DNA of 64,000 bases from Curvularia clavata. Lineage: Eukaryota. Positions 3,001 to 45,900 of the stretch are shown here, in pieces (positions within the stretch are counted from its first letter, which is position 1; each line of letters begins with the position of its first letter). The stretch is taken from the NCBI GenBank assembly GCA_023920165.1, contig CP089276.1, positions 3,906,001 through 3,970,000 on the forward strand. Reading direction: 5' to 3'. The position numbers and the translations under genes were made by a program. Below the pieces are notes generated by a model. The model searched no databases, was not told where the DNA came from, and saw only the letters and a list, made by a program, of their open reading frames with translations.

Positions 3001-4606
3001 TGAGCTTGGTGACGACACCGAACTTGCTGATTGTGGAGTCGATTCACTCTTATCGCTCATCATCACAAGTCGCTTTCGCAACGAGCTTGATCTCGAGATG
3101 GAGAGCGAATCATTGTTCTTGGAGCATCCAACAGTGGGTGATCTGAAAAAAGCGCTGTTAGCAAAGTCGCCAAACAGCATAACAGTGGAATCTACTGCTC
3201 ACGAAGTAGTAGACAAGACGGTATTACAGCCTGATGCTAACAATGGCAATGATGGGAATACAACTAACGCAAACAACCCCGAAACCGGTCACTTGCACAG
3301 AGCAGCCAACGATGAATCGCACGCGGCACTCGAAACGCGAAAGCAAACCGTGGAAGCTTTGGTCGAGGAATTTGCATCTGAATTCTCTGCACCAACATCA
3401 GACGAAAACGCGCCGGAAACGGTGGACGGAGAGAAAGTCGTGATGGTAACTGGCGGAACTGGAAGCCTTGGAGGCCATCTCGTATACCACCTTGCTCAGC
3501 AGCCTGATGTTCGAACTGTCGTCTGCTTGAATCGTAAGCATCGCGAAGATCCCATGCAACGCCAAATTCAGGCGATGCGTGACAAAGGTATACGTTTCCC
3601 CGACGCGCTGAAGCACAAATTGCTGGTTCTTCAGACCGATTCTGCCTCTCCACGACTAGGCTTGGAACAGAGGCAGTATGACGAACTTGCCGCCTCTGTT
3701 ACTCACCTTATCCATCAGGCTTGGCCAATGAGCGCGACACGTGCGTTGTCGGGGTTCAAGACACAGTTCCAGGTCATGCGCAATTTGATCGACTTTGCCC
3801 GTGATGCCACATCACGCCACCGTAAAGACTTCAAATTCAGCTTCGAGATGGTGTCCTCCATTGGCGTTGTTGGCTTGTATAACAAGGACAAGAACACATC
3901 TAAAACTGTAGTACCAGAGGGGCGAGCGAGCATTGCGTCAGTTCTACCCAATGGCTATAGTGAAGCAAAGTGGGGATGTGAACTTATGCTCGATCGCACG
4001 CTGCACCTGTACTCCGACCGCTTCCGCGCTATGACAGCCCGCTTGGGCCAAATTGCAGGATCAAAAACAAGCGGATACTGGAACCCAATGGAGCATTTCG
4101 GATTCTTGGTCAAGTCATCATGCACCTTGAACGCACTGCCGGATGTCGAAGGCAAATTGTATTGGACACCTGTCAATGACGTCGCAAGCGCACTTGCGGA
4201 TTTGGTACTTGCGAACAACAATTCTCATCCCATCTACCACGTCGACAATCCCCATGGCCAGTCGTGGAAAGAAATGAATGGTTATTTGCAAGCCGCACTG
4301 AAGATACCAAATCTGATCCCGTTTCGACAATGGTTGGAACGCGTGCGCCAGGCACCTCAAAAAGATAATCCTGCAATTTTGTTGTCGGACTTTTTGGAGT
4401 CAAATTATCTTCGCATGTCGTGTGGCGGCTTGGTCTTGGACGTCTCAAACACGCTCGAGCATTCACCTTCCCTCAGAGAAGTTGGCCCAGTATCTAACCA
4501 GGTCTTAAGAAAGTACATACATATCTGGAAGGAGATAGGATTTCTCCGTGCTACAGAAGATGATCGAAAGAATTTTGAGAAGGAGAGATTGTCACTTTGG
4601 GCTTAG
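2..4606 (+). CDS. Non-reducing iterative type I polyketide synthase, 5'-truncated by the window edge (end of KS, MAT, PT, ACP, ACP, terminal reductase R domain)
   Basis: Frame is open from position 2. KS tail VNNFSAAGGN; MAT FTGQGAQY, GHSLGEY, YAFHS; PT HEVDGIPLCTPSVYADMA; two ACP serines GVDSLLGL and GVDSLLSL; SDR-type R domain VTGGTGSLGG and YSEAK. No KR, ER or CMeT visible. Confidence 0.95.
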   Translation: MTAWERKGPAARRVLVNNFSAAGGNSALLLEDAPHVPDNVKVAIDTRKIYAVAVSAKTGASMQGNLRSLLAHLKKMPNVSLGELSYTTTARRIHHPHRVLFIGSSVEEICQQNESAIIHGIGVTRPKGSPRVVFSFTGQGAQYPGMAQQLLQESTVFRNELHRLDYVSEKLGFPSVIPFIESTEQDPTTFQPSVVQLASVCVQLALVKLWGTWGIHPSLVVGHSLGEYAALNTAGVLSDVDTIFLVGMRARLLEERCISGTHAMLVVDSPVDKISATLQEREYEIACINSPTETVLAGSSERMPELQELLKNAGMRSTLLKVPYAFHSSQVDVIIPELKARAQGVKFCEPRVPIIRPLDSTISTAGTAFDAEYLACHSREPVNMLGALIAAHSNGAITDRSVFLEIGPHPAVSKMVKCTLGPSASAVGSLQRGARPWDVLTRSLKSLYDNGASINWVAYQRDFQKFHRVVSLPSYSWDLKPYWIQYVNDWSLRKGDPPAESLHTGPKITSTTIHSVVSETGDSRSTKIVVEADISRKDLAPLVQGHEVDGIPLCTPSVYADMALTLGTYLLKRYLPENSQLLVDVSEMTISKALILNEQANKQLIQVHAEANWTSKSVAMKFMTFNNHQKLQEHSRCIVHYRDGSLQKELQASASEIQAKISTLRAGIASGKTARYNRAMVYRAIRPLARFHNDYRAIDEIVLNSDTLEASSILSFGSVKRDGDFHTHPAIIDSLTQACGFTMNCNDNTDLDVEVFMNHGWGSLQLFEPIDFEKVYKTYSRMESGPDKLWRGDAIIFDGDRIVAHFGQIAIQGVPRRVLKVILSLESGRKTQTRTTTAQPSITDRNQSEIHSAHPETKKKQAPVRSEPSPVDVGLQIISEESGVAIDAFTDDTVFADMGVDSLLGLTISSRFREQLDIDLDFNGLFFEYPTVKDLKAFLTMSLPDSGYVSPVVDDNDGLEPVHEITNALKIDSADNGSSSSPDFARALQIIAEESGVQVSELGDDTELADCGVDSLLSLIITSRFRNELDLEMESESLFLEHPTVGDLKKALLAKSPNSITVESTAHEVVDKTVLQPDANNGNDGNTTNANNPETGHLHRAANDESHAALETRKQTVEALVEEFASEFSAPTSDENAPETVDGEKVVMVTGGTGSLGGHLVYHLAQQPDVRTVVCLNRKHREDPMQRQIQAMRDKGIRFPDALKHKLLVLQTDSASPRLGLEQRQYDELAASVTHLIHQAWPMSATRALSGFKTQFQVMRNLIDFARDATSRHRKDFKFSFEMVSSIGVVGLYNKDKNTSKTVVPEGRASIASVLPNGYSEAKWGCELMLDRTLHLYSDRFRAMTARLGQIAGSKTSGYWNPMEHFGFLVKSSCTLNALPDVEGKLYWTPVNDVASALADLVLANNNSHPIYHVDNPHGQSWKEMNGYLQAALKIPNLIPFRQWLERVRQAPQKDNPAILLSDFLESNYLRMSCGGLVLDVSNTLEHSPSLREVGPVSNQVLRKYIHIWKEIGFLRATEDDRKNFEKERLSLWA

Positions 4607-5002: not shown

Positions 5003-6857
5003 ACGTGTTGGATAAGCGAGTGAGCCAGGCAAGCGAGTGAGCCACCTCACCAACTTCGCGCATCTATACAAGCGTGTAGCTCCACTATAGTATAATAATA
5101 TAGATATATATTAATATAGCAGATTAAGCAGTATCTATAGTATCGTTTTTACACGTACGCGAATTATGGCCAGTCTCTCTACACCTGCTACAGCGCGTAA
5201 GAGCCCGGCGGCTGACACCTGATCGCTCTCCTCCCTGACGCTCTTCATGAGCAATTTGCTCATCAGCCTCGCGTTGAGCGATAATATCCTCGCCAGCTCC
5301 CTTCGTAAGCACTCCTTGCTTCTGTATCCGCTTTCTTTTACGCTCTCTACGCTTTGATGCTGCCTCATTAGCTCTCTCAAGGTTGGCGATCTGCTCGCGC
5401 ATTAGCTCAGCTGAGAGCATTATTATCTCTGCCCCCTTCTTAAGCTGGCCAATCGCCGCAATAATCGACGCTGGTGATGAGCTTTTGTGCCGTCGAACAC
5501 GATCACTTATTAGCGTTGATTGAGCTTTAAGCTCGCGTACGTTGCCTGGCGTACAGGCCTGCCAGAGAGCTTCTGCGAGAGCAGCTGGAGGAGTAGGCGT
5601 ACGTAGCTGCACGTCAAGCTTTGATAGAACAGTGTCTGGCTGGAGAGGAACAAGGCCTGCACCTCGAAAAGCTGAGCAGATATTGGCTGACGTAAACGAT
5701 TGATTAAAGGCTGCCTTAAATGCTGGCAGAAACTCGAGCTTGGTGATGTGGTTGATGTGGTTGCGTATTAGGCTCTCCACCTCACGGCTATACGCACGCT
5801 TCAATGGCGAGAAGCAGCCAACGTCAAGAGGCTGGAGCAGGTGAGACGAGTGAGGCGGCACACAGAGCGTATAGATATTGTTCTCCTTGCAGAGCTCTTG
5901 GAACTCAAGTGACTGGTGGCTCTCATGGCCGTCAAGAATAAGCAGCCGGCGTGCCCCAACAACCTTGCCATCTGTATGCTTGACAAAGTGCTTTAGCCAC
6001 TCAACTCCTAGCTCGTTGGTCGTCCAGCCGTTATCGCTGACTGCGATCGCCCAGTCGCGTGGGATCTCTGCCTCCTCGTACCAGGCAGATAGGTGATACT
6101 TGCCAGTAAAGATCAGAAACGGCGGGATAGACCAGCCGGCTGCGTTAATCCCAGCGATAAATGTCACCCACTCGCGACCACCTGGCTGGATAGCCTTTGG
6201 CCGAGCTCTTCTTTCTGACGCTGTAACGACAAGCTGAGTAGTAATCTTGCCCATTAAGAAGCCAGCTTCGTCGAAGTTGTAGACGTCCTCGTCGCAGATG
6301 CCGTACTTGGCCTTTGTCTGCTCTACAAGCTCAAACCAGCTCTTGATTAAGACTGGATCTTCACATAGAGCTCTCTGTCTATCGTACGCCCGATTAAAGC
6401 GCGTTGTAAGACTGTCTGTACGCTTGACAAAGTTGGCTGGCCACTTCTGCCCAACCTGGCCAGCGCCGCGCGCAGCCAGCAGCTTATCAGCCATATCGCG
6501 CACAGCAGCGTACGTGGGCGCAAATCCACGTGAATCGAGATTGAGTATATGATCAACTATCACCTCCTCTTCTAGCTTAGTTAGCTTCTTTGAGTTGGGC
6601 TGACAATCGCGTCGGGCAGGGCAACCAGCGCGTCGGCGGTGGAGTGTAGCTCGCGAGATATTGAACGTCTTAGCAGCGCATCTCTCGGTTTCAATTTGCT
6701 TTGTATTAAGAGCTGAAATCGCAAGATACATATCAGCCTCACAAGAGACCTTAGAAGCTTGTTGGGGGGACGCCATAGTTGATTGAAGTTGAGGCGTTGT
6801 GGAAAGTTGGTGAGGTGGCTCACTCGCTTGCCTGGCTCACTCGCTTATCCAACACGT
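5003..6857 (-). mobile_element. Complete pogo/Fot1-family (Tc1-mariner superfamily) DNA transposon, 1855 bp
   Basis: Perfect 54-bp TIRs (5003-5056 and 6804-6857, ACGTGTTGGATAAGCGAGTGAGCC...), TA target duplication at 5001-5002 and 6858-6859, internal transposase ORF. Confidence 0.96.
5124..6776 (-). CDS. Pogo/Fot1-type DDE_1 transposase, 550 aa, apparently intact
   Basis: N-terminal HTH/CENP-B-like region, catalytic motifs NFDEAGF, LILDGHESH, LQPLDVG, and C-terminal CCHC knuckle CSRCRETGHNSRTC. Confidence 0.95.
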   Translation of the reverse strand: MASPQQASKVSCEADMYLAISALNTKQIETERCAAKTFNISRATLHRRRAGCPARRDCQPNSKKLTKLEEEVIVDHILNLDSRGFAPTYAAVRDMADKLLAARGAGQVGQKWPANFVKRTDSLTTRFNRAYDRQRALCEDPVLIKSWFELVEQTKAKYGICDEDVYNFDEAGFLMGKITTQLVVTASERRARPKAIQPGGREWVTFIAGINAAGWSIPPFLIFTGKYHLSAWYEEAEIPRDWAIAVSDNGWTTNELGVEWLKHFVKHTDGKVVGARRLLILDGHESHQSLEFQELCKENNIYTLCVPPHSSHLLQPLDVGCFSPLKRAYSREVESLIRNHINHITKLEFLPAFKAAFNQSFTSANICSAFRGAGLVPLQPDTVLSKLDVQLRTPTPPAALAEALWQACTPGNVRELKAQSTLISDRVRRHKSSSPASIIAAIGQLKKGAEIIMLSAELMREQIANLERANEAASKRRERKRKRIQKQGVLTKGAGEDIIAQREADEQIAHEERQGGERSGVSRRALTRCSRCRETGHNSRTCKNDTIDTA

Positions 6858-6927
6858 TAGCTAAAAACATAAAAGTTAGCGCTTTATATAGAAATTACTA
6901 AGCAGATTTGAACTAGCTAGCTGACTA

Positions 6928-8920
6928 TCCGTGCCAAGGCGTAGCTTATGACTAAGCCACGTCAGCTGCGCTGACACTCGCCGCAGGCGAGTGCCGACTC
7001 TCAATACGATATTACCTTCAATACGATATTTTTTCAACTACCTTTGATAAACTATCAAATTGCTACTCAACCACGCCAGTTTTCGTACTGATTTTCGTAC
7101 GCTAGTAAACCTGCAGCACGCATTGATGCCCACACCCGCTGTAATTGTTTATGTACTAGTTGGTAAGCTTGGAAATGCCGCTTTTTTTTCATGACTGGCA
7201 TGCCCTTCATCTTTGAATATTCAAATATAAGCTGGCTTAACTCAGCTGCAAGCTTATTTTGAACCATCTTTCGTGCCGAATGGGAGTAAATAACTCCCAT
7301 TGAAGATTTAAGAATTGTACGAGTCCTTTGTTGGCGTGATCGCCGTGATTGTGCAATCGAAGTCATAGTACGTAGTTCACCAATTGCTTGGTCTCCAGCA
7401 ACAGACATATTATACGCTCCAAACAACGTACGTTTTACGTTATCGCTAAGCTCCTCATTCTCTAGACAATAGTCAATATTGCGCTTAAGTGTCCGGATTG
7501 TTAGAGGCGTGTTTAGCTCTGGTGGTGGTGGTGTTCTATCTGTAGTAGCGTTACTACTACTTTCACTACTACTGCCAGTATCTTGGCAATCAGCGTCCTA
7601 ATCAGCAAAATCTCTCTGTATATTATTCTTGACGCGCTTAATATCCAATGGATATAATCCCGAGTCCCGCCAGCCTTTTTGTATTGTACGGGACTTGAAT
7701 GTATGGGCGCGGATTGACTCGATAGCAGCCAAGAACTCAACCTTGTTGAAAGCTGTACAGCCTGTTCGGGTTGCATGATCAACAGCCTGCGCGTGCCAGT
7801 GCTTATACGGCTGGAAACAGCCTACATCAAGCGGCTGGAGAAAGTGAGATGTATGTGGAGGTAGGCGATAGGCAATAACGTTGTGGTCCTCAAGGACTTC
7901 TAGAAACTCTTGGGTGCAGTGTGAATCAAATCCGTCAAACAAAAGCAGCCGATATAGCCCTTGAGTGTACTTCTGGCTCTATTGTACGAAGTGCTTTACC
8001 CACTCAAGACTTAACTGATCGTTTGTATAGCCACTATCGCTATGCGCGATTAAACAGTTATCGGGCAAATCAGTAAAGTAGCGCTCAAGGAGCGCGTCGC
8101 CTTCGACAATAATCATTGGTGGGATAGCGTGGCCTGCGGCATTGACGCACTCAGTTACAGTCAATGATATACGATTATCAGGCGTCGGTAGATAGACACG
8201 GCGGCGAGGCTCAAAAGTAACAACCCACTGGTCTTTTCCGATCCCAATGCGAAAGCCTGTCTCGTCAAAGTTCCAGATATCTGATGGTGGGATACCATGC
8301 GTCTGAATCAGGCTTATAAAGGTGTTAAACCACTCTATAATAGAGTCTGAGTCATGCGCAAGTGCGCGATTGAGATTAAGAGATCGCTGTCGCCGTACGT
8401 GAAGCTCAGGCTGCCGTTTGAGCCATTGTTTTGCCCATCGCGAGCTTGCAGTTGGTGGAGGACCAGGACCATTATGAGCTTGTTGAAGAAGATAATTGGC
8501 ACACGATACAATCATAGGCAGTCGTACACAAACTCCAAGTTCATCAAGGCGTGCGATATAATCGTATAGTGCTTGGTCTTGCGCCTTAGCAAGCTTATAT
8601 GTGCCGGAAGGGCGTTTAGAATGTGTTAGGCGGCCCTTTGATCGGGCGAGTAATCGCTGGTATGGAACACCGTGTTCACGCGCAAGCTGCTTAAAATTCG
8701 GCTTTGGGATATCCTTGATAGACTCTAAGATCTCTGCAATGCGATCATTAATTGAGGTTTGTAATTGAGCCATTGTGGGGGCTACAAGAGAGGATTAAAG
8801 TAGTGGAGTTACAAAAAAATATCGTATTGAAGGTAATATCGTATTGAGGGTCGGCACTCGCCTGCGGCGAGTGTCAGCGCAGCTGACGTAGCTTAGTCAT
8901 AAGCTACGCCTTGGCACGGA
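6928..8920 (-). mobile_element. Second, distinct pogo/Fot1-family DNA transposon, 1993 bp
   Basis: 107-bp TIRs (6928-7034 and 8814-8920, TCCGTGCCAAGGCGTAGC...) with two mismatches, TA duplication at 6926-6927 and 8921-8922. Confidence 0.95.
7067..8773 (-). pseudogene. DDE_1 transposase interrupted by two in-frame TAG codons
   Basis: ORFs 7979-8773, 7598-7942 and 7067-7426 share one frame. The only breaks I found are TAG at 7981-7979 and 7600-7598. Motifs NFDETGF, LLFDGFDSH and LQPLDVG are present. Confidence 0.9.
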
Positions 8921-25667: not shown

Positions 25668-27322
25668 TTACAAAGTATACCTGAAACCCTCAAGGCCCTC
25701 AATGATCTTGCCGCCATTGGCAGCTCTCTTGTTGGCTCTCCAGAACTTCAAGTTCAACAACAGCGAGATGATGACGATCATGCCAGCTGAGATCATGCAA
25801 GCAATAATTCCAGGAACGTAGCTTGGGGCATCCTGGGTCCTAAAGACTGTGCCACCAACAATACCACCGATGCCTCCAGCACCCACAAGGGTGGCAGAGC
25901 AGAGGGCGCGTTTCCATTGACCACGGATGTTGTTTGCTTGCCAAGTGAGAACGCAGGGAACGTTGGCATTGGCAGCTGCAGTTGCAAGGAACACACCTGA
26001 AATGTTGTTAGCAACTGTGCTGTGAGTGAACTGAGCAGAACAACTTACCCGTATATCTGACACCGATGTTGGTGCTGAAGCCCATCATAGGCAGGCCAAT
26101 TAGAGCAAGAACGCCATTGGCAATGACCCATGGAGAGCGGACTTGGTACTTGTCACCAGCGTACGCGAAGCCAATCATGACAAAACCGGCGAACACGTAA
26201 GGCGGGGCAATCAGACAGTTACTAGCAGCAGCGCTGAAACCCATTCCGTCCTTCAGAATGATGGGCAGGAAATAGGCAATGGCGTATGTTACAGTCGTGG
26301 TGAACATAAAGATCAAGGCAAAGCCCCAGACCTTCAGATCCATGGCACCGGCGAGGTATTTCCTGATGTTGAACTCCTCAGCTACGACGTCGTGGCGGTC
26401 TTGCTGGATTCTTGCCACGATAAAGTCCACTTCGTCTTGTTCAAGGAACTTCTTCTGCATCTTGCTTGGTTTGGCAGCGAGTTCTGGAAAATCAACAATA
26501 TAGTACCATCCAATGAGACCGATGGCGACAGTGATTACTCCCTGGAGCATGAAAATCCAACGCCAGCCTGATAGGCCGGGGCCAAATCCAACTGGAGTCT
26601 TGGGTGCCTTTTTGGTAGGGCCGTAGTGTTGACCAAGCCATTTCGCGGCTTGGTAGCCATGGCCATTGAGCAAGGAAAACAGGTAGCCAAGAATGCCAGA
26701 GAAGGCTGACGACAGCATTCCGATGAGGAAGAAGAAGGTATTACGCTTCTGAAGCTCGTAGCGCTTGTACCAGCAAGAGAGGAGGTAGGCAGAACCTGTG
26801 CTAGTCAGTACCATGCTCTAGATCTTTTATCGGTGAGATTTTCTCTGACGAACCTGGGAAGAAACCAGCCTCAAAGACACCAAGAATCAGACGAAGGGGA
26901 ACCAAAGTTGTCCACTCCTTGACAAATGCAAATGCGATCATAACGGCTCCCCATATGACCACGATTGATGGAAGGAAGAGCCTTGGGCCTAGCTTCCTCA
27001 GAACGACAGTAGCAGGAGGCTGCAGGGCAACATATGTGATGAAGAACAACAAGACGATGATGCTGTATCTTTCGCCCGTGAGCTTTAGGTCGACACCCAT
27101 ACCCGCTACCATGGCGACACCAAGGTTGGTCCGATCCATGAGCGAGACGCAGTACATGCAGCCCAGCGTAGGAATCAGCCTAAGATCTACCTTGCGGATG
27201 ATCTTTTTTTGCTGTTCGGGTGTGAACCGGTTGAGAGCGACATCGTTGGATGAAGTGTCGGATTCGACGCGCTCGATGGCGGTAACATCCCCTTTTTCAT
27301 CAACGAAAGAAGTAGAGGACAT
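25668..27322 (-). CDS. MFS transporter, anion:cation symporter (allantoate permease/Dal5-like) family, about 514 aa; exons 27322-26854, 26795-26049, 25996-25668
   Basis: [59 protein letters not shown]-terminus. Two GT-AG introns join three ORFs in frame. Confidence 0.93.
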
Positions 27323-27541
27323 GATGGTATGTATGCGCTCGATAGCCTTCTAGGTGGGGTATAAAAGTAATGGTTCTTGACAAGTCCACCAGATGTTTAA
27401 GGGGACAAGCAAGTCGATGAAAGAGGGGTGAATGCGCAGCCCCTGAGAAGAAAGGACGGCGATGAAGGCTCGACTTTCAGCTTGCTACGGGAGCCATGTC
27501 TTCATATAGTTTTGAGCTTCCCCAGATTGTCGGGCTCACTT

Positions 27542-27579
27542 CCCCAGATTTCTCCACCATCGGCTCCGCCGTACCCCAG
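27542..27579 (-). promoter_or_regulatory. Four co-oriented CreA/Cre1 consensus sites (SYGGRG) upstream of the MFS gene
   Basis: + strand CCCCAG 27542-27547, CTCCAC 27552-27557, CTCCGC 27564-27569, CCCCAG 27574-27579, 220-257 bp upstream of the ATG. A TATA-like TTTTATA is present on the minus strand near 27360-27367. Confidence 0.55.
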
Positions 27580-29178
27580 ACCCCAACACCATGGTCAGGT
27601 TGTTTGTCCCTATCCGATATGGAGACAAGCTCGCTGAGCTTTCGCCAAAACGTCTTATTGGCCTACGCCCAATACGATATCAAAGCCTGTCGTTTCGGAG
27701 GCAAATCACCATAGCAGTTAGGGGCGCTGCATACCAAGAAGCAAACTAGTTAGCATGCCGTGAAAAGTGCCGTCTGGCATGACAACACAGCGGCATCGAC
27801 TCCGAGACAGAGTGATAGCATCTCACGGGGCGTTCCCGATACTCATGCCGAGACGTACCCCACCTAAAATGACCAGGACACCGCGATTGAGTTGAGAAGT
27901 TGTGGCGAGCTAGGGTCTGGGCAGAGGCATGGTGCGCAATTCGCCGTGCGCTACAGGCATGCGGCGTCGGCCCAGAACCTTGGCTCAGAGCCAGACTGGC
28001 GAATGACCTACCGATTGTCAGTGCATCTTGGGATAGTCAGGGCATCTTCCGTTGTTTTGAAGTTTAATTCAAGGATAAAGTCTGGCGAGGTGCGGAAGTG
28101 TTCCACCCCTTGTTAGAAGGACGACGAGCGCACACACATTAATCCAGAGTCAAATAAGCCGACACAACATACGAATTCACTTTGGAAACACTCCAGAAAA
28201 CTGATTGCCAGGGCTCTCAGTACTCTAGGATATAGAAAGGGCCAGTGCGCATGTCTACAGTACTGTACGTCCGTGCTTGACAATGTATAGAGCGGAAGCT
28301 TCCCGTCCTCGTACAGTTCGCGTGCAGTTGCTCCGCTTCCTGTCAGACTGTCGATGATCGCATGCTGCATCATATGGATCGCATCGACAGGAACGGCAAT
28401 GCATACGGGACTTCGAAAGCTGTACACAAGCTTGGCTTGGCTTGCCATCACATCACAACGTACTCACCAGCATTTTCCTCTCATCCGCGTGCGAAACCAT
28501 CCCCTCAAAACCATGGTTTTCAGCCAACATTTCAGCTCTGTCACTAATAATCGAGATCCCAGCACCACGTGTCCCTGTCCCTGGATTCGGCCTCGTCGAG
28601 TGAGCCGAGGCTTGGATCGTCAGACGCTTATTCGACAAGGCTACAAGGCGTCTTAGGAGGAACCAGAAAACTAGTTGGTGTACTTGAATAGAGGCGATAT
28701 TCGCCGACCAAGGCGCTTCTGTTATGAAGATGTCCTAGCTCACTGCTTTGGTCGGGGGTACTTCCGTTGTAGGCTGGTCTAAGGCAAGGGAGTTGTCAAG
28801 GGCGCGGCTGAAAGGAAGGCCTAGACGAGTAGCCCAGAGGCAAAAAGGTAAACGGGTCGCATTTTAGCGTCTGAAAGTTCCAAGTCAATGGTTCGAGAAC
28901 GGGCGCATCCCAAGCCAAGAGTGTCTCGTGGCAGATCGATGGTGTTTCCAGGATAGTGGTTGGCAACATTTGGTGGAACACATCCAGTTAAGTCTAGATG
29001 CCTGTCGGATGGGTATGTCTTACATACCTAGACTATACGACACCATGTGGGAAATCGCCGCAATACCTAGGTGTGCTACTCTCTCACTGAATTCCTACAC
29101 TGAACGGTATCTTTCAATGCGAAAACGAAAGGATGCGAAGAAGAGACGGTCAATTTCCATGCAGACAAAACGACATCT

Positions 29179-30217
29179 CTACTTGAAGTCCTTTTCGCTC
29201 AGGGAATCCTCCATCTTCTGTATCCTTTCCCAGGTCTCACTCCACTTCTCCCACTCGCCGTCGGGCAGTCTTCCCTGAATTGGCAGTCTTCCGCCTTCCA
29301 TGGTGCCAAAGCCCGTCACTCTCTTTACAGCCTCCTTGATTCCAACAACGCCATACTTGCCAATAAACTCCTCGGTTGTACTAACAGTGTACTGCAATTC
29401 CTTGATTCTCTTGAGATTCTCGTCGCTGATTGGTCTTGTCTCGGCAAGCTTCATCAACGAGCATACTGTCTTGGGGTATATGGCTGCGAGTCCGTCAATG
29501 ACACCAGCTGCGTCAAAGATGACTATGGGACCGAGTTGTTGGCCTAGCCCAGAGTAAACGCGGAATTTGTTGTGGTCGATTTTCGGGTCGAGCGACACTT
29601 GGTTGTGCCATGAGACTACAGCATGCGACATTTTGCAGCCGACAATATTGGGGTGTTGAGCAAGGACACGATAGGTCTCGGGTGTGACCATGACTCCATT
29701 TGTTACGCCTGGGTAGTTGTAGCTAGCACTCGTCAGCTGATGCCCCTTGTTATCCGCCTTCCATGACTTACATCAGTATCGGGAGAGGGCTTTTGTCTGC
29801 AACAACGGTAAACCATTCCCTTATTCCCTCTTGACTCGCAGCCGCCCCGAAATATCCCGGGGCAAGGACCAACCCCCATTGTGCGCCGGCTTTCTTGAAG
29901 TCTTCTAACCATTCTAGTGTCTCATCCACACTATTGATCAGTGTTCCTGCCATGATCGGGTAGTCCTTGAAGCCTGCCTCTTCCAATCCTTTGCGTACTC
30001 CTGAGACGACATCGATGCGTTCTTGTCGCGACATGTGGATTGCTTCGCCAGTAGAGCCGAGCAGAACCAGCCCACGCACACCATTCCTGGCGAGGAAGAT
30101 TGAGTGATCTATCTGTGTCTGGACATCTACGGCAGGCTGGAGGGAGCTAGATGCGGATTTTGGTTTGAAGAAGGTCGGGACGGGGACGAAGACGCCCGTT
30201 GGTGGTGATGATGCCAT
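29179..30217 (-). CDS. DHDPS/NAL-family class I aldolase (2-keto-3-deoxy sugar acid aldolase-like), about 329 aa; exons 30217-29772 and 29722-29179
   Basis: GVFVPVPTFF, GLVLLGSTGEA, IYNYPG (formed across intron 29723-29771), Schiff-base lysine in HPNIVGCKMSH. Confidence 0.9.
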
Positions 30218-30382
30218 GACAATGGTTTGTGTTGGAAGATCCTCGTGCTTTCAGCGTTGGGTGATCGAAACAGAGTGAAATTCGGCAATTGAGCTCGATG
30301 TCGCAAAGATTTTCCACTCTTTATTGAATAGCTGTCGCGTCAACACCTCGGGTTGCTTTATCCCAGCACCCGAAGTTGCGTG

Positions 30383-30408
30383 CCCCGCGGTGGAGTCCAT
30401 GACCCCGC
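30383..30408. promoter_or_regulatory. Three CreA consensus sites in the 402-bp divergent aldolase/dehydratase promoter
   Basis: CCCCGC 30383-30388, GTGGAG 30390-30395 and CCCCGC 30403-30408 all fit SYGGRG on one strand or the other. Confidence 0.5.
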
Positions 30409-30619
30409 CCCCGTCGCCGTTCGGGTTACCACGAAGGTGGACCTGGTAGCTGCAATGTTACTATTGGATAAAAAACGCGCTTCGGTATTTGGGTATGACC
30501 ATGTAGTTATGTTCTTGCCGATGACCGAGATCTTGCCAATGCAACGTAACAGACTCACTTAACCACAGTTCCTTTGACTTTGAGCGGCTGTATCAAGAAA
30601 AACTCTGGGAACCTCAACG

Positions 30620-31877
30620 ATGGCAAAGATTGCAACTATCGAGTACTTCAGAGTACCGCCACGCTGGCTCTTCGTCAAGATCACCGATACCGATGGAAAC
30701 TTTGGCTGGGGCGAGGCTTCTCTCGAAGGCCACACACAAGCAGTCGAAGGATGCTTAGATGCCTGGGCTGAACGCTACATGGGCTTCGAAGCCGAGTATG
30801 ATATTGGAATCTCCCGTTTTGATCCCAGCTAACACTTCTCTAAGTGACATCGAACACATCTGGCAGATGTCTTGGCGCACAAGCTTTTATCGTGGCGGAC
30901 CTGTTTTCATGAGTGCTTTGGCAGGTATCGATATAGCCTTGTGGGACTTAAAGGCTCGAAAGCTGAACGTCCCAATCTACCAGCTGCTGGGAGGTAAAGT
31001 CCGAAACCAGTTGAAGGTATATGCATGGATTGGTGGAGACAGACCGAGCGACGTCAAAGACCAAGCGTGAGTAACCCTCATATTGATATGGATACGTGGT
31101 GGAAGAAAGATAAATCTAAACTCGAACAGACTCAGTCGTAAGGCCCAAGGCTTTCACGCCGTAAAAATGAACGCCACTGAAGACATTGGCTGGCTCGATA
31201 GCCCCTCTTGCCTTCAAGCCGCCGTAGACCGTTTAAAAACTGTCAAAGAGTTAGGAATGGACGCCGGTATGGACTTCCATGGTCGTGTTCATAAGCCCAT
31301 GGCCAAACAACTTGCCAAAGCTCTCGAGCCCTATCACCCCCTGTTCATCGAAGAGCCCCTGCTATCAGAACACGTTGGCGGCATCACCGCTCTGCACGCT
31401 CAGACCTCTATCCCTATCGCACTCGGCGAGCGTCTTCACTCGCGCTGGGATGTGCGTCCTTTCCTCGAGGCGGGCTCGGTCGATATCCTACAGCCTGATA
31501 TCTCACATATTGGCGGCATTTCGGAAATGAAGCGTATAGCGGCCATGGCTGAAGCCTATGATGTAGCCATTGCTCCGCACTGTCCTCTTGGCCCTATCGC
31601 TCTTGCAGCCTGCGTCCAAGTCGATTGCACGCTTCCTAATTTTGCGATACAGGAAATGAGTCTTGGAATCCATTACAATGCCGGCAGCGAGGACCTTACA
31701 TCTTATACCAAAAATCCAGAAGTTTGGGATGTCAAGGATGGTGTCATTGCCTTGATGGAAGGACCTGGCTTAGGTATTGAGGTTGACGAAGATTGGGTAA
31801 GAAGAGAGAGCAAGGATGCGAAGGCTTGGTTTACCCCTGGATTCATCGGACCTGGGGGTGAGATCAGGGAGTGGTAA
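30620..31877 (+). CDS. dgoD: D-galactonate dehydratase-like enzyme (enolase superfamily, mandelate racemase subgroup), about 381 aa; exons 30620-30795, 30845-31066, 31130-31877
   Basis: [87 protein letters not shown] match motifs I recognise from bacterial DgoD. Confidence 0.92.
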
Positions 31878-32069: not shown

Positions 32070-32916
32070 TCAGGTAGCTCTTTTATCTCCCAGCTCGCTC
32101 CACTCCAACCCTGACTTTCCATTCGTAGACTGGAACCTAGCAGGCATCGGTGATGGTCCCAGGAGTCCAGAGCGATGTTTAATTGGCGAGGAAAGATGCG
32201 CTGGCCCAATTTGATGCAGTAGAAAAGGTGTCGGCGGAATGACTATATCCTGTTTCTGTGAGGTTCCTGGGATCGAAGATGGTATGATTCCATCAGATGC
32301 AATACGTGACGCTCGTCCATGGTCACCAACTGCTTTGTCCAGGCGTGCTTGCAGTGCAAGTGAAGTTGGCACGTCGTGTGGATATGTACATCCAAGAGTA
32401 CTCTCGCCAAAGGTCTCGTCATCATACACCGTGCTACTCCAAAGCAGCGCCTCCCACGGCCACACGAAGCCTTCGTCCTCCCATGGCCAAGAGTGTGTCT
32501 CTTCATATTCGAACACTGCGAAAGCCGCCAATATGAAAGTGCATGCTCCGAGAAAGCCGATCTGTTCTTTATAGTTAGTGAGCCGTGTTGAAGAGATCCG
32601 TGAATAGCTTGGCAGAGGTACGTACTACTGCAGAGCTTAGTTGATCTGGTCGCGGAAACCACCCTGGCTGCTCATACTCGGCAACTGAGACGATGAGTAA
32701 GACGCCGAGAAGGATGCAGGTAAACCGATTTTTTGATAGTTTGGAAAGTATGAGGAGGTATTCTGAACGTATGGAAGTAGGATAGACGAAATCTACCAAT
32801 GATGTGATGGTCTGGCAGAGCAGCTCGGTTGCGGTAGCTGCATTGGACTCTCTATCACCAGTTTGTACTGGGGTTGCATCATGCGGTGCTACTGCAGGCT
32901 TGGTAGGCTCTGCCAT
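32070..32916 (-). CDS. Hypothetical membrane protein, about 260 aa; exons 32916-32626 and 32561-32070
   Basis: Intron 32562-32625 (GTACGT..CTAAC..CAG) joins two ORFs in frame. Two hydrophobic segments (CILLGVLLIVSVA; IGFLGACTFILAAFAVF). No recognised domain. Confidence 0.5.
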
Positions 32917-34590
32917 GATACCGAAGCAACGCGAAGGTTTGGTGTAAGTAAGCGTGAGGTCGAGATGATGGGTGGTTGAGTCGAGCTCGAGGCTCACCTG
33001 CCGATGACGACATTGCAAACAAACAAATGATGATGATGAGAGTGAAATCACAGGAATATATTGTTAGCAATCGCATCGTGAATATGAATTGCTCCACCTC
33101 TGCATGTGATCACAAAATGGCATCTTGAAATCTTTCACAATTGCCATGCACTCAAACTTCATTGCACTAGCTTGAGCTGATGGAAACAAAGATTAGCAAG
33201 TGAAATTTTATTACAACAAACTGGTACAATTTGAAGCATTTTCAGGTTACACGAAGTGGTGTAGTAAATGAGATACAGTGCTCGTGGCACTCTCTGTGGC
33301 TCAAACATTAGGATTTAACTTCCCATCGCTTCGTGACCATTCAAAGTAGATGCCAAACAATGAGCTGACTGGAAACGATACAACGTCCAATATAGTCTTC
33401 CGCTTGTCGTAATGATATATGGTACTGACAATCACATTGACAATACTAGTGTCAGCCTTAACCTCGCTCATGCAGGAGGATTTGCATTAAATGCGTTGTT
33501 TGGGCAAAGGATCCGTTAGCTCGATTGTATCAAACAGTCTTGCAGTATCATCCAATCGTTCTGGTAGACGTTTGCTGCATTCGCGTCCGGGATCGCGATG
33601 GTAGGTAAGGTTTGCTTCATTACAAACGACACATCTGACCGCAGAATTTTCACGCACCGCGCGCAAACGCAGTCGACTAGATGTGCAAACGTAGCCGAAT
33701 ATGCCCAAACGCAGTCGTCGAGATGCATTCGGCGAGATGCGCAAACGCAAACGACTCCACGCACATCATGTGATCAAATAGCGTGTGAAAGGGCTTTCTC
33801 ATACTCGCAACTTAGATGTCTAGCCTACTCTATAGTAGTAAGCACCCATTCTCTACCAGGCTGGAAATATATACGTACGGTTACAGAAAATCTACATTTC
33901 TTACGTTCTTTCTGATTCTCTGGTGCTAATTTCTGCAAGCAAATCAGTATAGAAGATCCCGATGCGCTCGACGAAGCGCAGCAGGTCGTTAGCCGATGTC
34001 ATCCCCATGGCACAAATTTTCCAATTCCGTATTCTCTCTTGCCATTGCTAATGCACATGAACGTCATAGATAACGTACCATGAGGTAATTCCAGTCAGAT
34101 ACTCCCAAGACTGCTGTAACGTCACAGTGACTCATTAAGAACAGGATTGGCGGCACATTCACTCTACGGTCCCATTTGGTTGCGTCTCCCACACTCTCTA
34201 GCTCTAACCAGCCTTCCATGCGCCGCATACTCGAGAAAAGAGGCCTGAGCGGAGTCGACAAAACTGCCTCTACGAAGCGCAAGGTAGCGAAGGGCAAGGC
34301 ATATCACAACAGGGTAATCCTCGCCGCGATACCAAGCAGCAGCATGATTCGTCTGTCAGCTCTCACTTTGCCATGAAGGACGACCCTTGAGTGCAATTCA
34401 GAAGAGCCCCTCGTGAACTGCAAGGCTGGTTTATTCAGCGAAGCGTATGGTCAGTGCAAGAAGATACGACCATGGCTTTCAGGCTTTCACTTCTGAAATT
34501 GGTGGTGTGAGAATAGGTAGCCGACGATGACAACGGCAATTCTCAATGTTGACTACTTGACGTGAAGTCAAGCAGTCCAAAAGAAGTCAG

Positions 34591-40900: not shown

Positions 40901-42961
40901 CAAGTCGATAGCTACAGCTTCAGTGCTGCCCGGGGTTAGTGTATTGCCATCGCTGTCCATAGCATTGCCGTAGAAGGTGTTGCGGCTGCCTCGAGGTCGG
41001 TGCCCCTGCTCAGCATCCGTTTTGGACCTCGGCAGAGGTATGGCATCTCGAGCGTTGCTGTGCTGCAGGAGTGACGTTGAACGAGGAACAAGAGTACCAT
41101 TGGGCGATACCATGTGCACAGCATTAGGGTCAGTAGGGTACGAGTCGCGGGATGACGGGGCGTTGCGCCAGTATTCGTAGGATCCCGACCCAGCAGAACT
41201 GTTGCTTTGGTGGTTTGCTCGTCGGGTGTTGGTGTTGACTGGAGGGGGCGGCAGAGGGCGGTTTGAGATTCCAGGGTGGTAGAACATGTCTGGTGGTTCG
41301 CCAGGCATAGCTGAGGAAGGTCCCATAAGAGTTGAGCCGGATATAGCAGACGCGCTATCCATGAGGGTGACCTCATCGCCTTCATCGTAGCTCCGCCTTC
41401 GCGCACTAGGTTCTTCAAGTCCACCCGTACCAAAAGCATCGACACGCGCATTGTGCGAAAAGGACGGGAATGGATGAATCGAATCATACTCTTCGCCGTG
41501 GTGTTCTGATCGGCGCTGCGAGCCCAACGTTGACGAAGGGTAACTGCTTCCTGCTGCCAATTGACTCGGGTCTCCGCCATAGTTAAACGACGGCATAAAC
41601 CCACCACCATACGTGCCGACGTCCATACCCACGTATTCGGTGTCGCTGGCGCTTGCTTCTTTTGCAGGCTCCACGGGCATCTGTGGTGAATGTACAGACG
41701 TGTAGTTGCTGAACAGTCCGCTGCCGCCACTTGCTCTCCGGGCTTCATCTGCCCTCTCTTGTTCCTCAGCCATCTGGAGCGCAGCGAGACCAGCAGCAGC
41801 TTCCACATCACTCTCGTCGCTAGCGTAGGTCTCACGTCCAGGATGTGTGCCTCTTTGGCTACCATTCATGCCATTCCGTCCAGATGTGTGGTAATCTGTG
41901 TGGTAATATTGGCCGTTGGGTTGCTGGTCATAGGCCCCACCGTTACCACCTCCTGTCATACTCAAGACGTCGTTAAAAAGCTCATCTTGGTATCCGTTTT
42001 GTGACGCAAAGTATTCGTCGCTGTCAGACTCGTGAGGTGGCGGCGGGGGCAAGGGCCGCGAAGACACGGTGTTGGTTCGCTGAGGTGAGCCGTGGGGCGG
42101 AACTTCGGGAGTCGGAGGGAGGGTGTTCGACTGGTGACTCCCATATCTGTCGTTACGCTGTGAGCCATAGCCAGTGTCGTAAACCGGTGGAGAGGGTAGC
42201 GGGGCATGCGAGGCGCTTGAGGAATAATACCCCGAGGATGCGTTCGAGGCATGTCGAGAAGGTCGGCTGCTCCATTCGTCACCAGTAAGCTGATTGCTTC
42301 CAGGAGGCACAGGCAATGGTGGCGGTGCAGGTGTTGTGTAAGACGAAGCCCCTCTTTGGACAGAGCTCGTTCTTCCAAATTGCGAATGCTGGTACGAAGA
42401 CGGCGAGGGATACGAGGTAGTAGGGGAGGTGGGAGAGAGAGCGTAGGACTGGTTAACTGTATTGGTCCTAGAGAGATTGTTGTTCGCATAGGCGGCTGGG
42501 TTGTAGGGCTGGTGCGACGCTGTTGTGGAGACGGCGGGTGCAAAGGACCTGCTCACGCCACCGTAATGTTGGGGGTTGGGCAGAGCAATGGGCTGCGTGT
42601 TGTAGTTTTGAGGGTTGTACTCGAGCTGCTGTCGCTGTGGTGGGTAGCCATAGGCGGCGCCGCCGTACCCACCGGTTGTTGGCGACATTGGACCCTGACT
42701 GACATGCGGGGAGTTTGCCGTGGCCATGAACAGCTCGTCATTCTGGCGCGCAGCAACACTATTGCGCCGCTCAGGCTGGGGGTATCCGTAGCCATAGTCT
42801 GAGCCTGCGCCAGCACCTGCAGCGCCTCCATTTGCAGCATCGCCGTGGTCAGCGCCTGACGAGGAGCGGTGGTAGGGGTCGTGGTACTGGGCCGAAGCGC
42901 CAACGCTCGAGTGTGGGATGTTTGGGTTGTAGTAGTTTTGGCCGTTCCCGTAGTACGACAT
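37919..42961 (-). CDS. Rho guanine nucleotide exchange factor with DH-PH-CNH domains (Rom2/Tus1/Rgf family, probably Rgf3/Tus1-like), about 1664 aa; exons 42961-38858 and 38809-37919
   Basis: Low-complexity N-terminus, DH ([25 protein letters not shown]), PH ([16 protein letters not shown]), CNH C-terminus. Intron 38810-38857 restores the frame. Confidence 0.93.
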
Positions 42962-45900
42962 GGTGGCAGGCGTGTGCGAAAATGTCTAGGTAGGCGCAAT
43001 GGGATCCGATATGGTCAGAAGCGTCATTCACGAGGCTACCTGGTGAGGTTGCGCAGGCACCATGACCGGGGCGTCTAAGCTGAGCGATGGGGGTTCAGCA
43101 GCGTGGCCGCGCGAGAGGGACGGAGAAGCAGAAGAGGCTGCTGCTGCTTGCGACGAGGGAGACGGGCGTGAGCTCGCATGCGCTGGGCGCGAATGTCTGG
43201 GGGGCAAAAGTGTGGAATGAGGGACGCGGGCAGAGCTGCTTGTCGCCCTGTGCGTCGATGGCAGCGGTCGGGGGCGAATCGTCCAATGTCGTTTGCGTGG
43301 CAGTAGCGCGGGGAAGGGGTCGCGCAGCGCTGTTGCTTCAAGACTGCAGTCAACCGCTGGCGGACGTGGGGATGGAAAAGAGGGTTGCGATTGCAATGGG
43401 GCTGTGGTGCCAAAATGGCCTTGCTGCGGTTGCGTATTTGCCGGCACTGTTGACGCCCGCGTAGTCGCAATCGTACCAGATGATAGGCAGGCCATGTGAG
43501 GGAGCCAAGAGGCGCCGGGGGACAGCGTGCAGCCCCTGGACTCGGGCCGCGACAGGTGAAGAGCCTCGCCCGCTACATTCATCACCACATGCGCTGTTGA
43601 CTTGTCTCAGTCCAACCCTCAGCTGCAGTTTATCATCATGCCTGGTGCTTGCTAACATGGAGTCGTGTGTCAAGTCGGGCGTCCTCTGGAACTCATGCTT
43701 ACCCCGCATGTGAGCCCTACTACGACATTCTTTGTCTCTCGCCCATGTCATATCCAGGGTCTGATAATAGCGTCCACGATCTGTCATTTGTCTCTGGGGG
43801 GCATGTGTCCTTTTTTTCTTGCTTTCCTCTGACATTTCTCTCACTTCCGTCGTACTGCCATGCACCACCAACTTGGGTTTGCAGGTAGATCACCGTATGT
43901 CGTTTCTGGAAATCCCACCATGAGAACTCAGGGTTTGGGGGGAATCCCACTAGGGGTCGACGATTATGCATACTGCATCAGCGGCCGACCCAGGGAAAAC
44001 GAAAATAGCGGCAAGGTTGTTCTTATGCGTGTAGCAGCAGCGTCCCTGAACTTCTCTATATAAGGAAGGCCGACGGATGGAGGACCTTGACACGGTTTGC
44101 TACAGGATCATTATGTTGACAGAACATGCCTGGAAAGTCGTTGCTCCAGCCGTGCATGGGATGTTTCTCTGCCGACTGTGGCTTCTAGGAGAAGATGGAG
44201 CCCTGGTCATACGACTTCTCGTATCCACCCGAGATATATGAACACCTGGTACTCACAAGCACGACATCGACTTTATCGCCAAGTACATCAAACTACGATA
44301 CTGCATTCAACATTCAGAGTGAGTGTTGCTGCATAGCCCGGGCAATGTCGAATTCAGGTCCTAAAAAGGGATGTTATGTTCGACGGGAGCGTCAACTTCT
44401 TCAACCTCTTCGACTTCATAGGTGCCTTTGATAATTGCAATGGCCTGTCTTTCTACATTGAATGATTGCGAGCAACTCATTCAGCTTGTGCCTAGAGGAA
44501 AACTGAAAACGCTCCGGCGGGCGAGTAGCAGTCAGTGGTGCCAGAGCTCTGGGTTAGAGATCTGCCGCGATCCATACAGGTGGCTCGATCCAGTGGTACA
44601 AATTCTTCACCCGGATGGACCCGACAGCTTCATGCAAGCGGGGACAGGAAGAATGATGGAAACTTCTGATTCCAGCTTTTGGCTATTGAAAATGTGGTAC
44701 ACACATTTATGCTTGCTAGAACGGCGCGAATCTCGGGGGTCCGAAGAAACCCCTAGAGTGTTGTGAGCAGATTGAGAACGAGTTCATTCAGCACTTCAAC
44801 TTCATCATCAACAGCATCGAAAAAGCCAGGCTGGCGCGCGATTACGCTAATACTAAAATCCAGTAGTTAGGCTCAACAAAGATTTTCTAGAAAACGGCAA
44901 TCATGGCTTGTCGCCCAATACCAGCACACGGGTATCGTGAAGGTCTCAGGGCCGAGAGCTCAACCATGCTCAGGCACCCCATGGACTGCATCATGCCAAC
45001 CAGATTCGACCCAGACCAAGGAAACAGACATGACGTGGACATGACCATGTATACGCCGTAGGCTGTTTACCCCGCTTCCGCTTGAATCCTGGAGTGTGGA
45101 GAATCGGGCTTACTTTTTGTGTCCTGGAGCAGGGACACGCAATTTTCCCAAACACCTGCTCTTTCTGTGGGCCGTAACAGAGCACTGGGTCACGGCTCCC
45201 TATGCCCCTGATAGAACAAGAGACGCGATGCCTGCTAGACGCCATTACGAAATGCCAAGTCAAGGACACCAAGACGCTTGTGCCAAAACTCGTGGCGGCG
45301 CAGCATTGTGGACAAGATGCAGATCTCTTTCTCGAAGGCACAGCGCGGCAGTCGCCGATTGTGGTTCCGCAGTGGCAAAAACTGATAAATAGGTCGTGAT
45401 CCACTGCGGTTCGAAATCTTAGTTTGTGAAAAAGCTGGAGAGACGGTATTGGAAGACTATGGTGCGACAGGGCAGGCACATGTTTGCATCCATACTACTG
45501 GGTAGCGGATGCCAAGTGCGTGAATTTAACAGAAGAGATACATAGTATTACGAAATCTTGAGCAGTTTGGATGGGCACGGACGTCACGTGCTGCCTTGGA
45601 CGATGAAAGCAAAAGCTTGGCGAAATCACGACAAGAGATAAGTATTTGCCCGAGATAGCGCGCGAGTAGCCAAGCCACGGAGCAGAAGGCTTGGACGAGG
45701 CGTATTTTCTTTGCAACCCTAAACGGATGCATGGTAGGACCAGATCAGCCTGTCCAGACCTGGTGTGACCGGTGGCAGGGTGTCAGCCTGACGAGCAAGG
45801 AGGATGTCGGGATTGTCGCATTCATGGTCGCCAGCTGATAACAAGACGACCTGTTACCCGGAGGTCGGAGTCGCAGCCATGGAGGCAGTTTTGGCTAGAG

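Follow-up and report, generated by a model that had tools for sequence, protein, structure and literature searches.

Within a 64,000-nucleotide stretch of Curvularia clavata contig CP089276.1 (assembly GCA_023920165.1, positions 3,906,001 to 3,970,000; hereafter, the window), two divergently transcribed genes encode a DgoD-type dehydratase and an aldolase of the dihydrodipicolinate synthase (DHDPS) family. With a little better than even confidence, we read this pair, from its sequence and that of its relatives, as a kinase-free module for the dehydration and cleavage of D-galactonate, expressed from one divergent promoter. In the proposed scheme, the dehydratase would remove water from D-galactonate to yield 2-keto-3-deoxy-D-galactonate, which a class I (Schiff-base lysine) aldolase would cleave directly, and in unphosphorylated form, to pyruvate and D-glyceraldehyde. 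Within the De Ley-Doudoroff route, which is non-phosphorylative, the module would correspond to the lower half. The glyceraldehyde might then be reduced by an aldo-keto reductase (AKR) encoded within the cluster in Leotiomycete-like loci and, as a weak link in the scheme, a nearby transporter may import the acid in the lineage of the window. D-galactonate is the presumed substrate, as suggested by the score of the dehydratase against the DgoD equivalog model and by analogy with a sister clade of LRA4-like aldolases whose genes lie beside L-rhamnonate dehydratase.

Positions 25668..31877 contain three intron-bearing genes encoding an ACS-type MFS transporter, the DHDPS-family aldolase and the DgoD-type dehydratase, and the two outer coordinates are the stop codons of the transporter and dehydratase genes, respectively. 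Gene models were built using tblastn with full-length homologues, together with splice-site checks and spliced RNA contigs from public runs. All five introns of the three genes are skipped in the RNA contigs, with ends of GT..AG or an equally fitting cut. The genes and associated features are as follows.

30620..30795, 30845..31066 and 31130..31877, plus strand: coding sequence of the DgoD-type dehydratase (381 residues; introns of 49 and 63 nt).
30217..29772 and 29722..29179, minus strand: coding sequence of the DHDPS/NAL-family class I aldolase (329 residues; one 49-nt intron).
27322..26854, 26795..26049 and 25996..25668, minus strand: coding sequence of the ACS-type MFS transporter (514 residues, three exons).
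30218..30619, no strand: shared divergent promoter region of the aldolase and dehydratase genes (402 bp).
30346..30430, no strand: conserved promoter block, with GCGGGGT (30402-30408, minus strand) and CCGA/TCGG elements.
28394..29178, minus strand: 3' untranslated region (UTR) of the aldolase mRNA (~785 nt, from an RNA contig of run X1).

Pfam assigns the dehydratase gene to MR_MLE_C (2.6e-66) and MR_MLE_N (7.3e-12), the two aldolase exons to DHDPS (4.1e-12 and 6.3e-07) and the transporter to MFS_1 (2.2e-14 and 9.3e-15), and the best protein matches of the window genes come from Pleosporales, including Pyrenophora, Curvularia, Bipolaris and Alternaria. An earlier note on this DNA had placed the three genes here with the aldolase and dehydratase head-to-head; the Pfam families, gene models and RNA contigs all agree with that placement, and the ATG-to-ATG distance of 402 bp is exactly the one it gave.

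The case for a functional pair begins with its recurrence. A metagenome scan with the aldolase alignment recovered 79 related loci, and a maximum-likelihood aldolase tree was built from 71 of these with coverage of 75% or more, alongside 24 named proteins and the window sequence, eight low-coverage loci being left out. The tree splits into two clades, A and B, with 100% support in the Shimodaira-Hasegawa-like approximate likelihood ratio test (SH-aLRT). Clade A comprises 16 loci that are 42-53% identical to the query and represents the LRA4-like aldolases of L-rhamnose clusters; the window aldolase falls outside it and inside the sister clade B, together with 55 loci, in a tree from which LRA4 of Scheffersomyces stipitis is itself absent. 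Where at least 3 kb of upstream sequence is available, a DgoD-type gene adjoins the aldolase in 20 of 24 clade-B loci (16 of 20 distinct aldolase sequences), one of these positives, L073, having only a C-terminal fragment of the dehydratase. With flanks of any length, the count for clade B is 29 of 55 loci. For clade A, with the same minimum of upstream sequence, it is zero of ten. The dehydratase is also present in three of the low-coverage loci kept off the tree (L035, L048 and L054).

The arrangement is mostly divergent and its spacing is often close to that of the window, with start codons 401-434 bp apart in 14 of 23 loci measured and 478-506 bp apart in six more. Distances of 350 and 666 bp occur in two loci and of 1900-2287 bp in L008, L065 and L066, the Leotiomycete-like group generally having the two genes ~1.9-2.3 kb apart with another gene between them, while in L025 and L028 the dehydratase and aldolase lie in tandem. 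Named genomes tell a similar story. The two genes bear adjacent locus tags in Coniothyrium glycines (004605/004606) and Neocucurbitaria (004850/004840), and in seven further named genomes the "longest contig" size listed for the clusters of both proteins agrees, hinting at a shared contig; among these are the Sordariomycetes Diaporthe ampelina (35,960 bp) and Diplogelasinospora (90,573 bp). The longest-contig figures for the two proteins of Cytospora mali agree as well. Linkage of the pair thus spans Dothideomycetes and Sordariomycetes among the named genomes, and Leotiomycete-like loci in addition. Because it recurs across such distant fungi, the adjacency exceeds what chance would produce, and the conservation across ascomycetes that the earlier note had proposed as a check is borne out by the informative clade-B loci and the named genomes alike.

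Clade A serves as an internal control. In three of its loci, the aldolase gene is found with an L-rhamnonate dehydratase-like gene (NF011968, 317 and 154 bits in two open reading frame (ORF) pieces, cut-off 393) and with a short-chain dehydrogenase resembling Lra1 (NF053807, 361 bits, cut-off 400). Elsewhere in clade A, loci have an Amidohydro_2 lactonase-like gene nearby. The control cluster is located as follows.

L059:6810-11032 (also L060 and L061), metagenome contigs: LRA-type L-rhamnose cluster of three tandem genes.

Together, the rhamnonate dehydratase of clade A and the DgoD linkage of clade B indicate that each aldolase clade travels with its own type of dehydratase, and this is the strongest argument for the window aldolase taking as its substrate what its DgoD-type neighbour produces. 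The same parallel bears on the possibility that the neighbourhood is conserved in the absence of any metabolic link, the aldolase acting on 4-hydroxy-2-oxoglutarate or some other 2-oxo acid and the two genes having no more than a bidirectional promoter in common. The closest solved structures do include human 4-hydroxy-2-oxoglutarate aldolase (HOGA1) and an uncharacterised DHDPS-family protein of Coccidioides, at 26-27% identity, and several sources name the family HOGA-like. Structural likeness at 26% identity, however, is uninformative with regard to substrate, and the sister clade, in which an aldolase is accompanied by its matching aldonate dehydratase, dehydrogenase and lactonase, favours a pathway link. 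The other recurrent neighbours of clade B, a Zn2Cys6 regulator and an aldehyde-reductase-like AKR, are likewise typical of sugar-acid clusters, and we consider a purely incidental association highly improbable.

It is also improbable, to a degree only slightly less marked, that the aldolase belongs to pectin-sugar catabolism, as either a GaaC/LGA1 enzyme acting on 2-keto-3-deoxy-L-galactonate or an LRA4-type aldolase of L-2-keto-3-deoxyrhamnonate (L-KDR), with a DgoD-type neighbour that is unrelated to its pathway. The AKR that adjoins the aldolase in Leotiomycete-like loci would suit the GaaC/LGA1 alternative, since the D-galacturonate reductase GAR1 of Trichoderma reesei is described as an aldo-keto reductase in passages of PMC9192788. 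The LGA1-like names attached to some public records carry little weight; within one 90%-identity cluster they alternate with "4-hydroxy-2-oxoglutarate aldolase", which marks them as loose best-hit labels. In all, public records give the clade-B family at least five names (dihydrodipicolinate synthase, N-acetylneuraminate lyase, HOGA, LGA1-like and L-KDR aldolase). Moreover, GaaA, the usual partner of gaaC, is of a Rossmann-fold family (the Euglena homologue has 420 residues), and no such gene recurs beside clade B. As for LRA4, its relatives form a separate, fully supported sister clade with an L-rhamnonate dehydratase of their own. For either enzyme, a pairing that is kept in 20 of 24 loci would be hard to explain without shared function. 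One further candidate was rejected outright. LkaA of Aspergillus niger (NRRL3_08604), an L-KDR aldolase, is an HpcH/HpaI protein according to Table S2 of PMC9781776, and the window protein is a member of PF00701.

The identity of the dehydratase is the second line of evidence. Exon 3 of the window gene alone scores 329 bits against NF010624, the NCBIfam equivalog for galactonate dehydratase, with a cut-off of 311. A homologue, P0121, which matches the window at 100% identity across the 248 residues of exon 3 queried, reaches 514 bits when scored in full, placing it within the equivalog, and the description of the enzyme as DgoD-type in the earlier note therefore stands. The pairwise alignment of P0121 with E. 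coli DgoD covers 381 of 382 residues with four gaps and shows 48% identity; in it the six positions matching D183, H185, E209, E235, D258 and H285 of DgoD are all identical. These residues we take to be the metal ligands and acid/base residues of the E. coli enzyme. The nearest solved structure is PDB 3rr1, a putative D-galactonate dehydratase (4.3e-73), and RNA contigs of runs X1 and X5 skip both introns, which have GT..AG ends. The window gene is thus best viewed as the probable fungal orthologue of bacterial DgoD, with D-galactonate as the substrate suggested by the equivalog score.

These scores also address what we see as an unlikely, though the least remote, alternative, namely that the same architecture handles another aldonate, such as L-arabinonate or D-fuconate (with the same C2-C4 configuration) or D-gluconate, in the catabolism of pentoses or deoxy-sugar acids. 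P0121 does match the models for bifunctional gluconate/galactonate dehydratase (232 bits) and arabinonate dehydratase (127 bits), both far below their cut-offs, and, according to passages of PMC11219438, keto-deoxy aldolases of the DHDPS family are promiscuous, the archaeal KDG aldolase of Sulfolobus being an example. Against this, the galactonate equivalog is the only model to exceed its cut-off (514 versus 311), the next best standing at 232 versus 750, and the full-length likeness to E. coli DgoD, with its catalytic set intact, points in the same direction.

The aldolase would complete the D-galactonate module. Its exons score 45.9 and 28.8 bits against PF00701 (cut-off 22.1), which places it in the family. 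Relative to E. coli DapA, the Schiff-base residue K161 corresponds to K179, Y133 to Y150, T44/T45 to S55/T56 of the G-S/T-T-G-E motif and Y107 to Y122. None of these residues varies among 27 orthologues that span three fungal classes and have a mean column identity of 75%. The position of DapA Arg138, by contrast, is occupied by Val155; this arginine is presumably the one that binds aspartate semialdehyde. A score of 108 bits against TIGR00674 (cut-off 206) adds to the loss of Arg138, and the candidacy of the protein as a true dihydrodipicolinate synthase was rejected on both grounds. With the catalytic residues kept and the DHDPS-specific arginine replaced, the protein is predicted to be an intact class I pyruvate aldolase rather than an enzyme of lysine biosynthesis.

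By sequence, no solved structure is near to the aldolase, the best match reaching only 1e-06. An AlphaFold2 model of homologue P0001, which is 96% identical to exon 2 of the window aldolase and 89% identical to exon 1, has a DHDPS-type TIM barrel (predicted local distance difference test (pLDDT) score of 91.7); its fold matches, at 21-27% identity, include the Coccidioides protein of unknown function, human HOGA1, E. coli YagE and many DapA structures. A search of the ESM Atlas with the aldolase returned generic DHDPS clusters only. Among the representative matches and 30 cluster members, no record of T. reesei LGA1, A. niger GaaC or S. stipitis LRA4 was found; a second DHDPS-family protein of S. 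stipitis, P0412, is among the matches and may or may not be LRA4. At the transcript level, the aldolase intron is spliced in runs X1, X5 and X13.

Further evidence comes from the region between the two genes. The RNA contig of the aldolase ends at 30386 and that of the dehydratase starts at 30553, which leaves no more than 166 bp between the two 5' ends and makes the promoter compact and two-way. Spliced transcripts of both genes are present in runs X1 and X5. In run X13 the pair is covered in parts, and run X15 yields a contig of the transporter only, contig cover being of a kind that can neither rank nor exclude expression. Fifteen intergenic regions were aligned; although their overall identity to the window is just 37-51%, GCGGGGT, CCGA and TCGG show little or no variation among them. 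The 400 nt upstream of the aldolase ATG contain GCGGGGT, on either strand, in 29 of 48 clade-B loci versus one of 13 clade-A loci, against a background rate of 0.18 per kb, and in Pleosporales-like loci the motif lies ~195-240 nt upstream of the aldolase start. The core GCGGGG fits the sequence SYGGRG, which we take to be the CreA/Mig1 consensus, and CGG/CCG triplets are typical of Zn2Cys6 sites. This pattern suggests that the pair may be co-regulated through the conserved block. GCGGGGT was also considered as a general element of dehydratase promoters, and this was rejected, as it is present in three of the 11 loci where the dehydratase has a promoter of its own.

Downstream of the aldolase, a contig of run X1 spans 28394-29722 and 29772-30386 without a break, giving the 3' UTR its length of ~785 nt. 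This UTR is unusually long, leaves ~495 bp between its end and the 5' end of the transcript contig for the transporter, and fills much of the apparent gap between the two genes. The possibility that a hidden gene or a decayed alpha/beta-hydrolase occupies the gap at 27350-29178 was rejected; it contains no Pfam match and is in part aldolase 3' UTR. Of four ORFs in or overlapping 27746-29278, three belong to no Pfam family and the fourth has no match in the related loci beyond the aldolase's own stretch. Likewise, tblastn with the hydrolase, reductase or regulator of the related loci found no match within 27350-29178.

Several points weigh against reading the pair as a D-galactonate module. The stereochemical preference of the aldolase is not readable from its sequence, and, by sequence, LGA1 of T. 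reesei or GaaC of A. niger may fall inside clade B, a reading weakened by names and neighbours. DgdA and DgdB, the D-galactonate dehydratases of A. niger, are comparable to the window dehydratase by described function rather than by sequence. The RNA contigs attest to the presence of transcripts, not to co-regulation. Linkage is missing in four of the 24 informative clade-B loci (L012, L036, L052 and L064), and the unlinked loci include Sordariales-like ones and one that groups with a Venturia protein; the low-coverage locus L053 also lacks a dehydratase despite 4.4 kb of upstream sequence. Finally, none of the eight PF00701 genes of A. niger is numbered next to dgdA or dgdB. The pairing is not kept in that species, if clade B exists there at all, and the want of a numbered PF00701 neighbour may be the reason that synteny gave no aldolase candidate in A. 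niger.

The claim in the earlier note that no kinase lies nearby held up for DgoK. In tblastn searches at E <= 1e-3, E. coli DgoK, DgoA and DgoR have no match in the window or in the 79 related loci. No PfkB-type kinase appeared in Pfam scans of the large window ORFs, a judgement that comes from these general scans, as no search aimed at PfkB was made.

The transporter fared less well. It can be called an ACS-family protein at the level of the family; for the subfamily, its homologue P0241 scores 161 bits against TIGR00893 (ACS, 2.A.1.14-like), below the cut-off of 395. Runs X1, X5 and X15 have RNA contigs from which the transporter introns at 25997-26048 and 26796-26853 are both removed; run X13 shows this for the first only. 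In the lineage of the window it lies 1.8 kb downstream of the aldolase; among the 79 related loci, an orthologue adjoins the pair in just one, L018, a close relative. In Coniothyrium glycines the orthologue is tagged 004570, ~35 locus tags from the pair, and in Curvularia kusanoi the contig sizes listed for the transporter and the aldolase differ. The transporter promoter (27323-28393) contains neither GCGGGGT nor ACCCCGC. The transporter's linkage to the pair is confined to close relatives, and it shares 22% identity with E. coli DgoT. It is therefore no conserved part of the module in which the earlier note had included it, and appears instead to be a lineage-specific neighbour whose membership in the pathway is doubtful. 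The picture drawn there of a complete kinase-free module for uptake, dehydration and cleavage is thereby reduced to its two-gene core, which is conserved and has neither DgoK nor DgoA.

Outside the pair, only the closest relatives retain synteny with the window, and other loci have partners of their own. An AKR recurs in ten clade-B loci, between the dehydratase and the aldolase, and has mammalian aldehyde reductase AKR1A1 as its best PDB match (2e-60). A Zn2Cys6 regulator recurs beside clade-B pairs in seven loci. Directly downstream of the aldolase in ten loci, many of them Pleosporales-like, is an Abhydrolase_3 protein (e.g., L003:11346-12380) whose only PDB matches are plant carboxylesterases (~3e-05). 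Clusters of three or four genes, consisting of the pair with the AKR and, in some, the Zn2Cys6 regulator, are seen among Leotiomycete-like and certain other loci, namely L005, L008, L010, L025 and L065-L067. By tblastn, none of these three neighbours is found in the window. Example parts of an extended cluster are located as follows.

L025:8311-9069 and L025:13740-15752: stretches of the extended cluster.

With respect to origin, 17 bacterial relatives of the aldolase (25-41% identity), found in a scan whose use of fungal peptide patterns makes the evidence weak, have no DgoD, DgoK, DgoA or DgoT within 5 kb. Since these relatives are distant and none is near dgo genes, the pair was probably assembled in fungi. 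A broader interpretation, to which we give slightly less than even credence, is that the clade-B aldolase is the missing fungal 2-keto-3-deoxy-D-galactonate aldolase. It would belong to an old and widespread Pezizomycotina module that arose in fungi from a bacterial-type dehydratase and a duplicated rhamnose-pathway aldolase, was joined in some lineages by a glyceraldehyde-disposing AKR and its own Zn2Cys6 regulator, and came under control through GCGGGGT and CCGA elements.

Elsewhere the window has housekeeping genes, a polyketide synthase fragment and a transposon, and includes the following features.

2-4606, plus strand: C-terminal part of a polyketide synthase running off the left end, with acyltransferase, dehydratase, two carrier and terminal reductase (NAD_binding_4) domains.
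5124-8794, minus strand: remnant of a Tc5/pogo-type DNA transposon, with a DDE_1 endonuclease ORF (570 residues) and an HTH_Tnp_Tc5 ORF, lying between the polyketide synthase and the listerin (LTN1) gene.
32073-33063, minus strand: two ORFs downstream of the dehydratase that belong to no Pfam family and are kept only in the closest loci (L016-L018, L021 and L048), at 36-43% identity.
42001-44000, no strand: segment at the 5' end of a RhoGEF gene with a G+C content of 0.59, versus ~0.50, and strong positive GC skew.

The earlier note had proposed an undescribed system, which the literature shows to be an overstatement. Passages of PMC6231085 and PMC11219438 state that the non-phosphorylative D-galactonate route is known biochemically in Aspergillus terreus and A. 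niger, crediting Elshafei and Abdel-Fatah (1991, 2001), and name dgdA and dgdB as D-galactonate dehydratase genes, crediting Motter et al. (2014); the two genes are also listed in Table S2 of PMC9781776. The pathway itself is thus a known one. The gene for its aldolase, on the other hand, appears to be unassigned in the passages concerned. A 2018 paper (PMC6231085) wrote that "no aldolase has been associated" with it, and in 2022 the step was "still elusive", with zero genes for it in six fungal species in Table S3 of PMC9781776. More recently, in 2025, passages of PMC12744346 suggested the route as a possible D-galactose backup in a multiply blocked A. niger strain. A full-text literature search, which did not cover Motter 2014 or Chroumpi 2020, found no named fungal 2-keto-3-deoxy-D-galactonate aldolase gene and no such pairing. 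The supplements of PMC5674754 contain none of the identifiers NRRL3_05650, NRRL3_08012 and NRRL3_10522. The last of these is lraC in main-text passages of PMC5674754 but dgdA in passages of PMC6231085 and PMC9781776.

Genome-scale sugar-metabolism models of Aspergillus, Trichoderma, Penicillium and two basidiomycetes have a gap where the non-phosphorylative D-galactose/D-galactonate route requires an aldolase, and the conserved pairing offers one specific gene family to test for that step. Should the assignment prove true, the pathway map would be complete and genome annotation would improve, given the many public names that the family now carries. It would also provide a cofactor-free enzyme for producing pyruvate and D-glyceraldehyde from galactose-rich biomass. 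This is a niche, gap-filling result and not a new kind of system.

Among known systems, the Aspergillus route has the same chemistry as that proposed here, from D-galactonate by way of 2-keto-3-deoxy-D-galactonate to pyruvate and D-glyceraldehyde with no kinase. It differs in that no aldolase gene has been assigned to it, whereas in the window an aldolase is physically paired with the dehydratase. The dgoRKADT genes of E. coli share with the window a 48% identical dehydratase with conserved catalytic residues and a nearby transporter of the same broad ACS family. Unlike E. coli, the window has no DgoK, DgoR or DgoA, the last being of the 2-keto-3-deoxy-6-phosphogalactonate (KDPGal) aldolase family, and cleavage would fall to an unrelated DHDPS-family enzyme.

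The D-galacturonate pathway (gaaA, gaaB/lgd1, gaaC/lga1 and gaaD) likewise employs a DHDPS-family aldolase for an unphosphorylated 2-keto-3-deoxy-galactonate, but of the L-enantiomer, and the divergent partner of its aldolase gene is a Rossmann-fold reductase rather than a DgoD-type dehydratase. We assume, in this regard, that gaaA and gaaC of A. niger share a divergent promoter; for comparison, NCU09532 and NCU09533 of Neurospora crassa are consecutive. The dehydratase of that pathway is described as a longer enzyme of the L-fuconate-dehydratase type. The aldolases described by NF040954 are also DHDPS-family proteins that use Schiff-base chemistry to cleave unphosphorylated keto-deoxy hexonates, and their relationship to the window aldolase is a distant one (40 bits against a cut-off of 390).

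The closest parallel to the pair is found in the LRA1-4 cluster for L-rhamnose in S. stipitis and its relatives. Passages of PMC5674754 present this cluster as a kinase-free and genetically defined fungal precedent, and against it the earlier note, in knowing of no genetically defined fungal cluster for its module, overstated the novelty. The two systems differ in that the dehydratase there is of the RhmD/L-rhamnonate equivalog, compared with the DgoD equivalog in the window, in that its dehydrogenase and lactonase genes have no counterparts in the window, and in that the aldolase clades, at 42-53% identity, are well separated. They agree in taking an aldonate through a keto-deoxy acid to pyruvate and an aldehyde without a kinase, in doing so with a clustered enolase-superfamily dehydratase and DHDPS-family aldolase, and in having aldolases that fall into sister clades.

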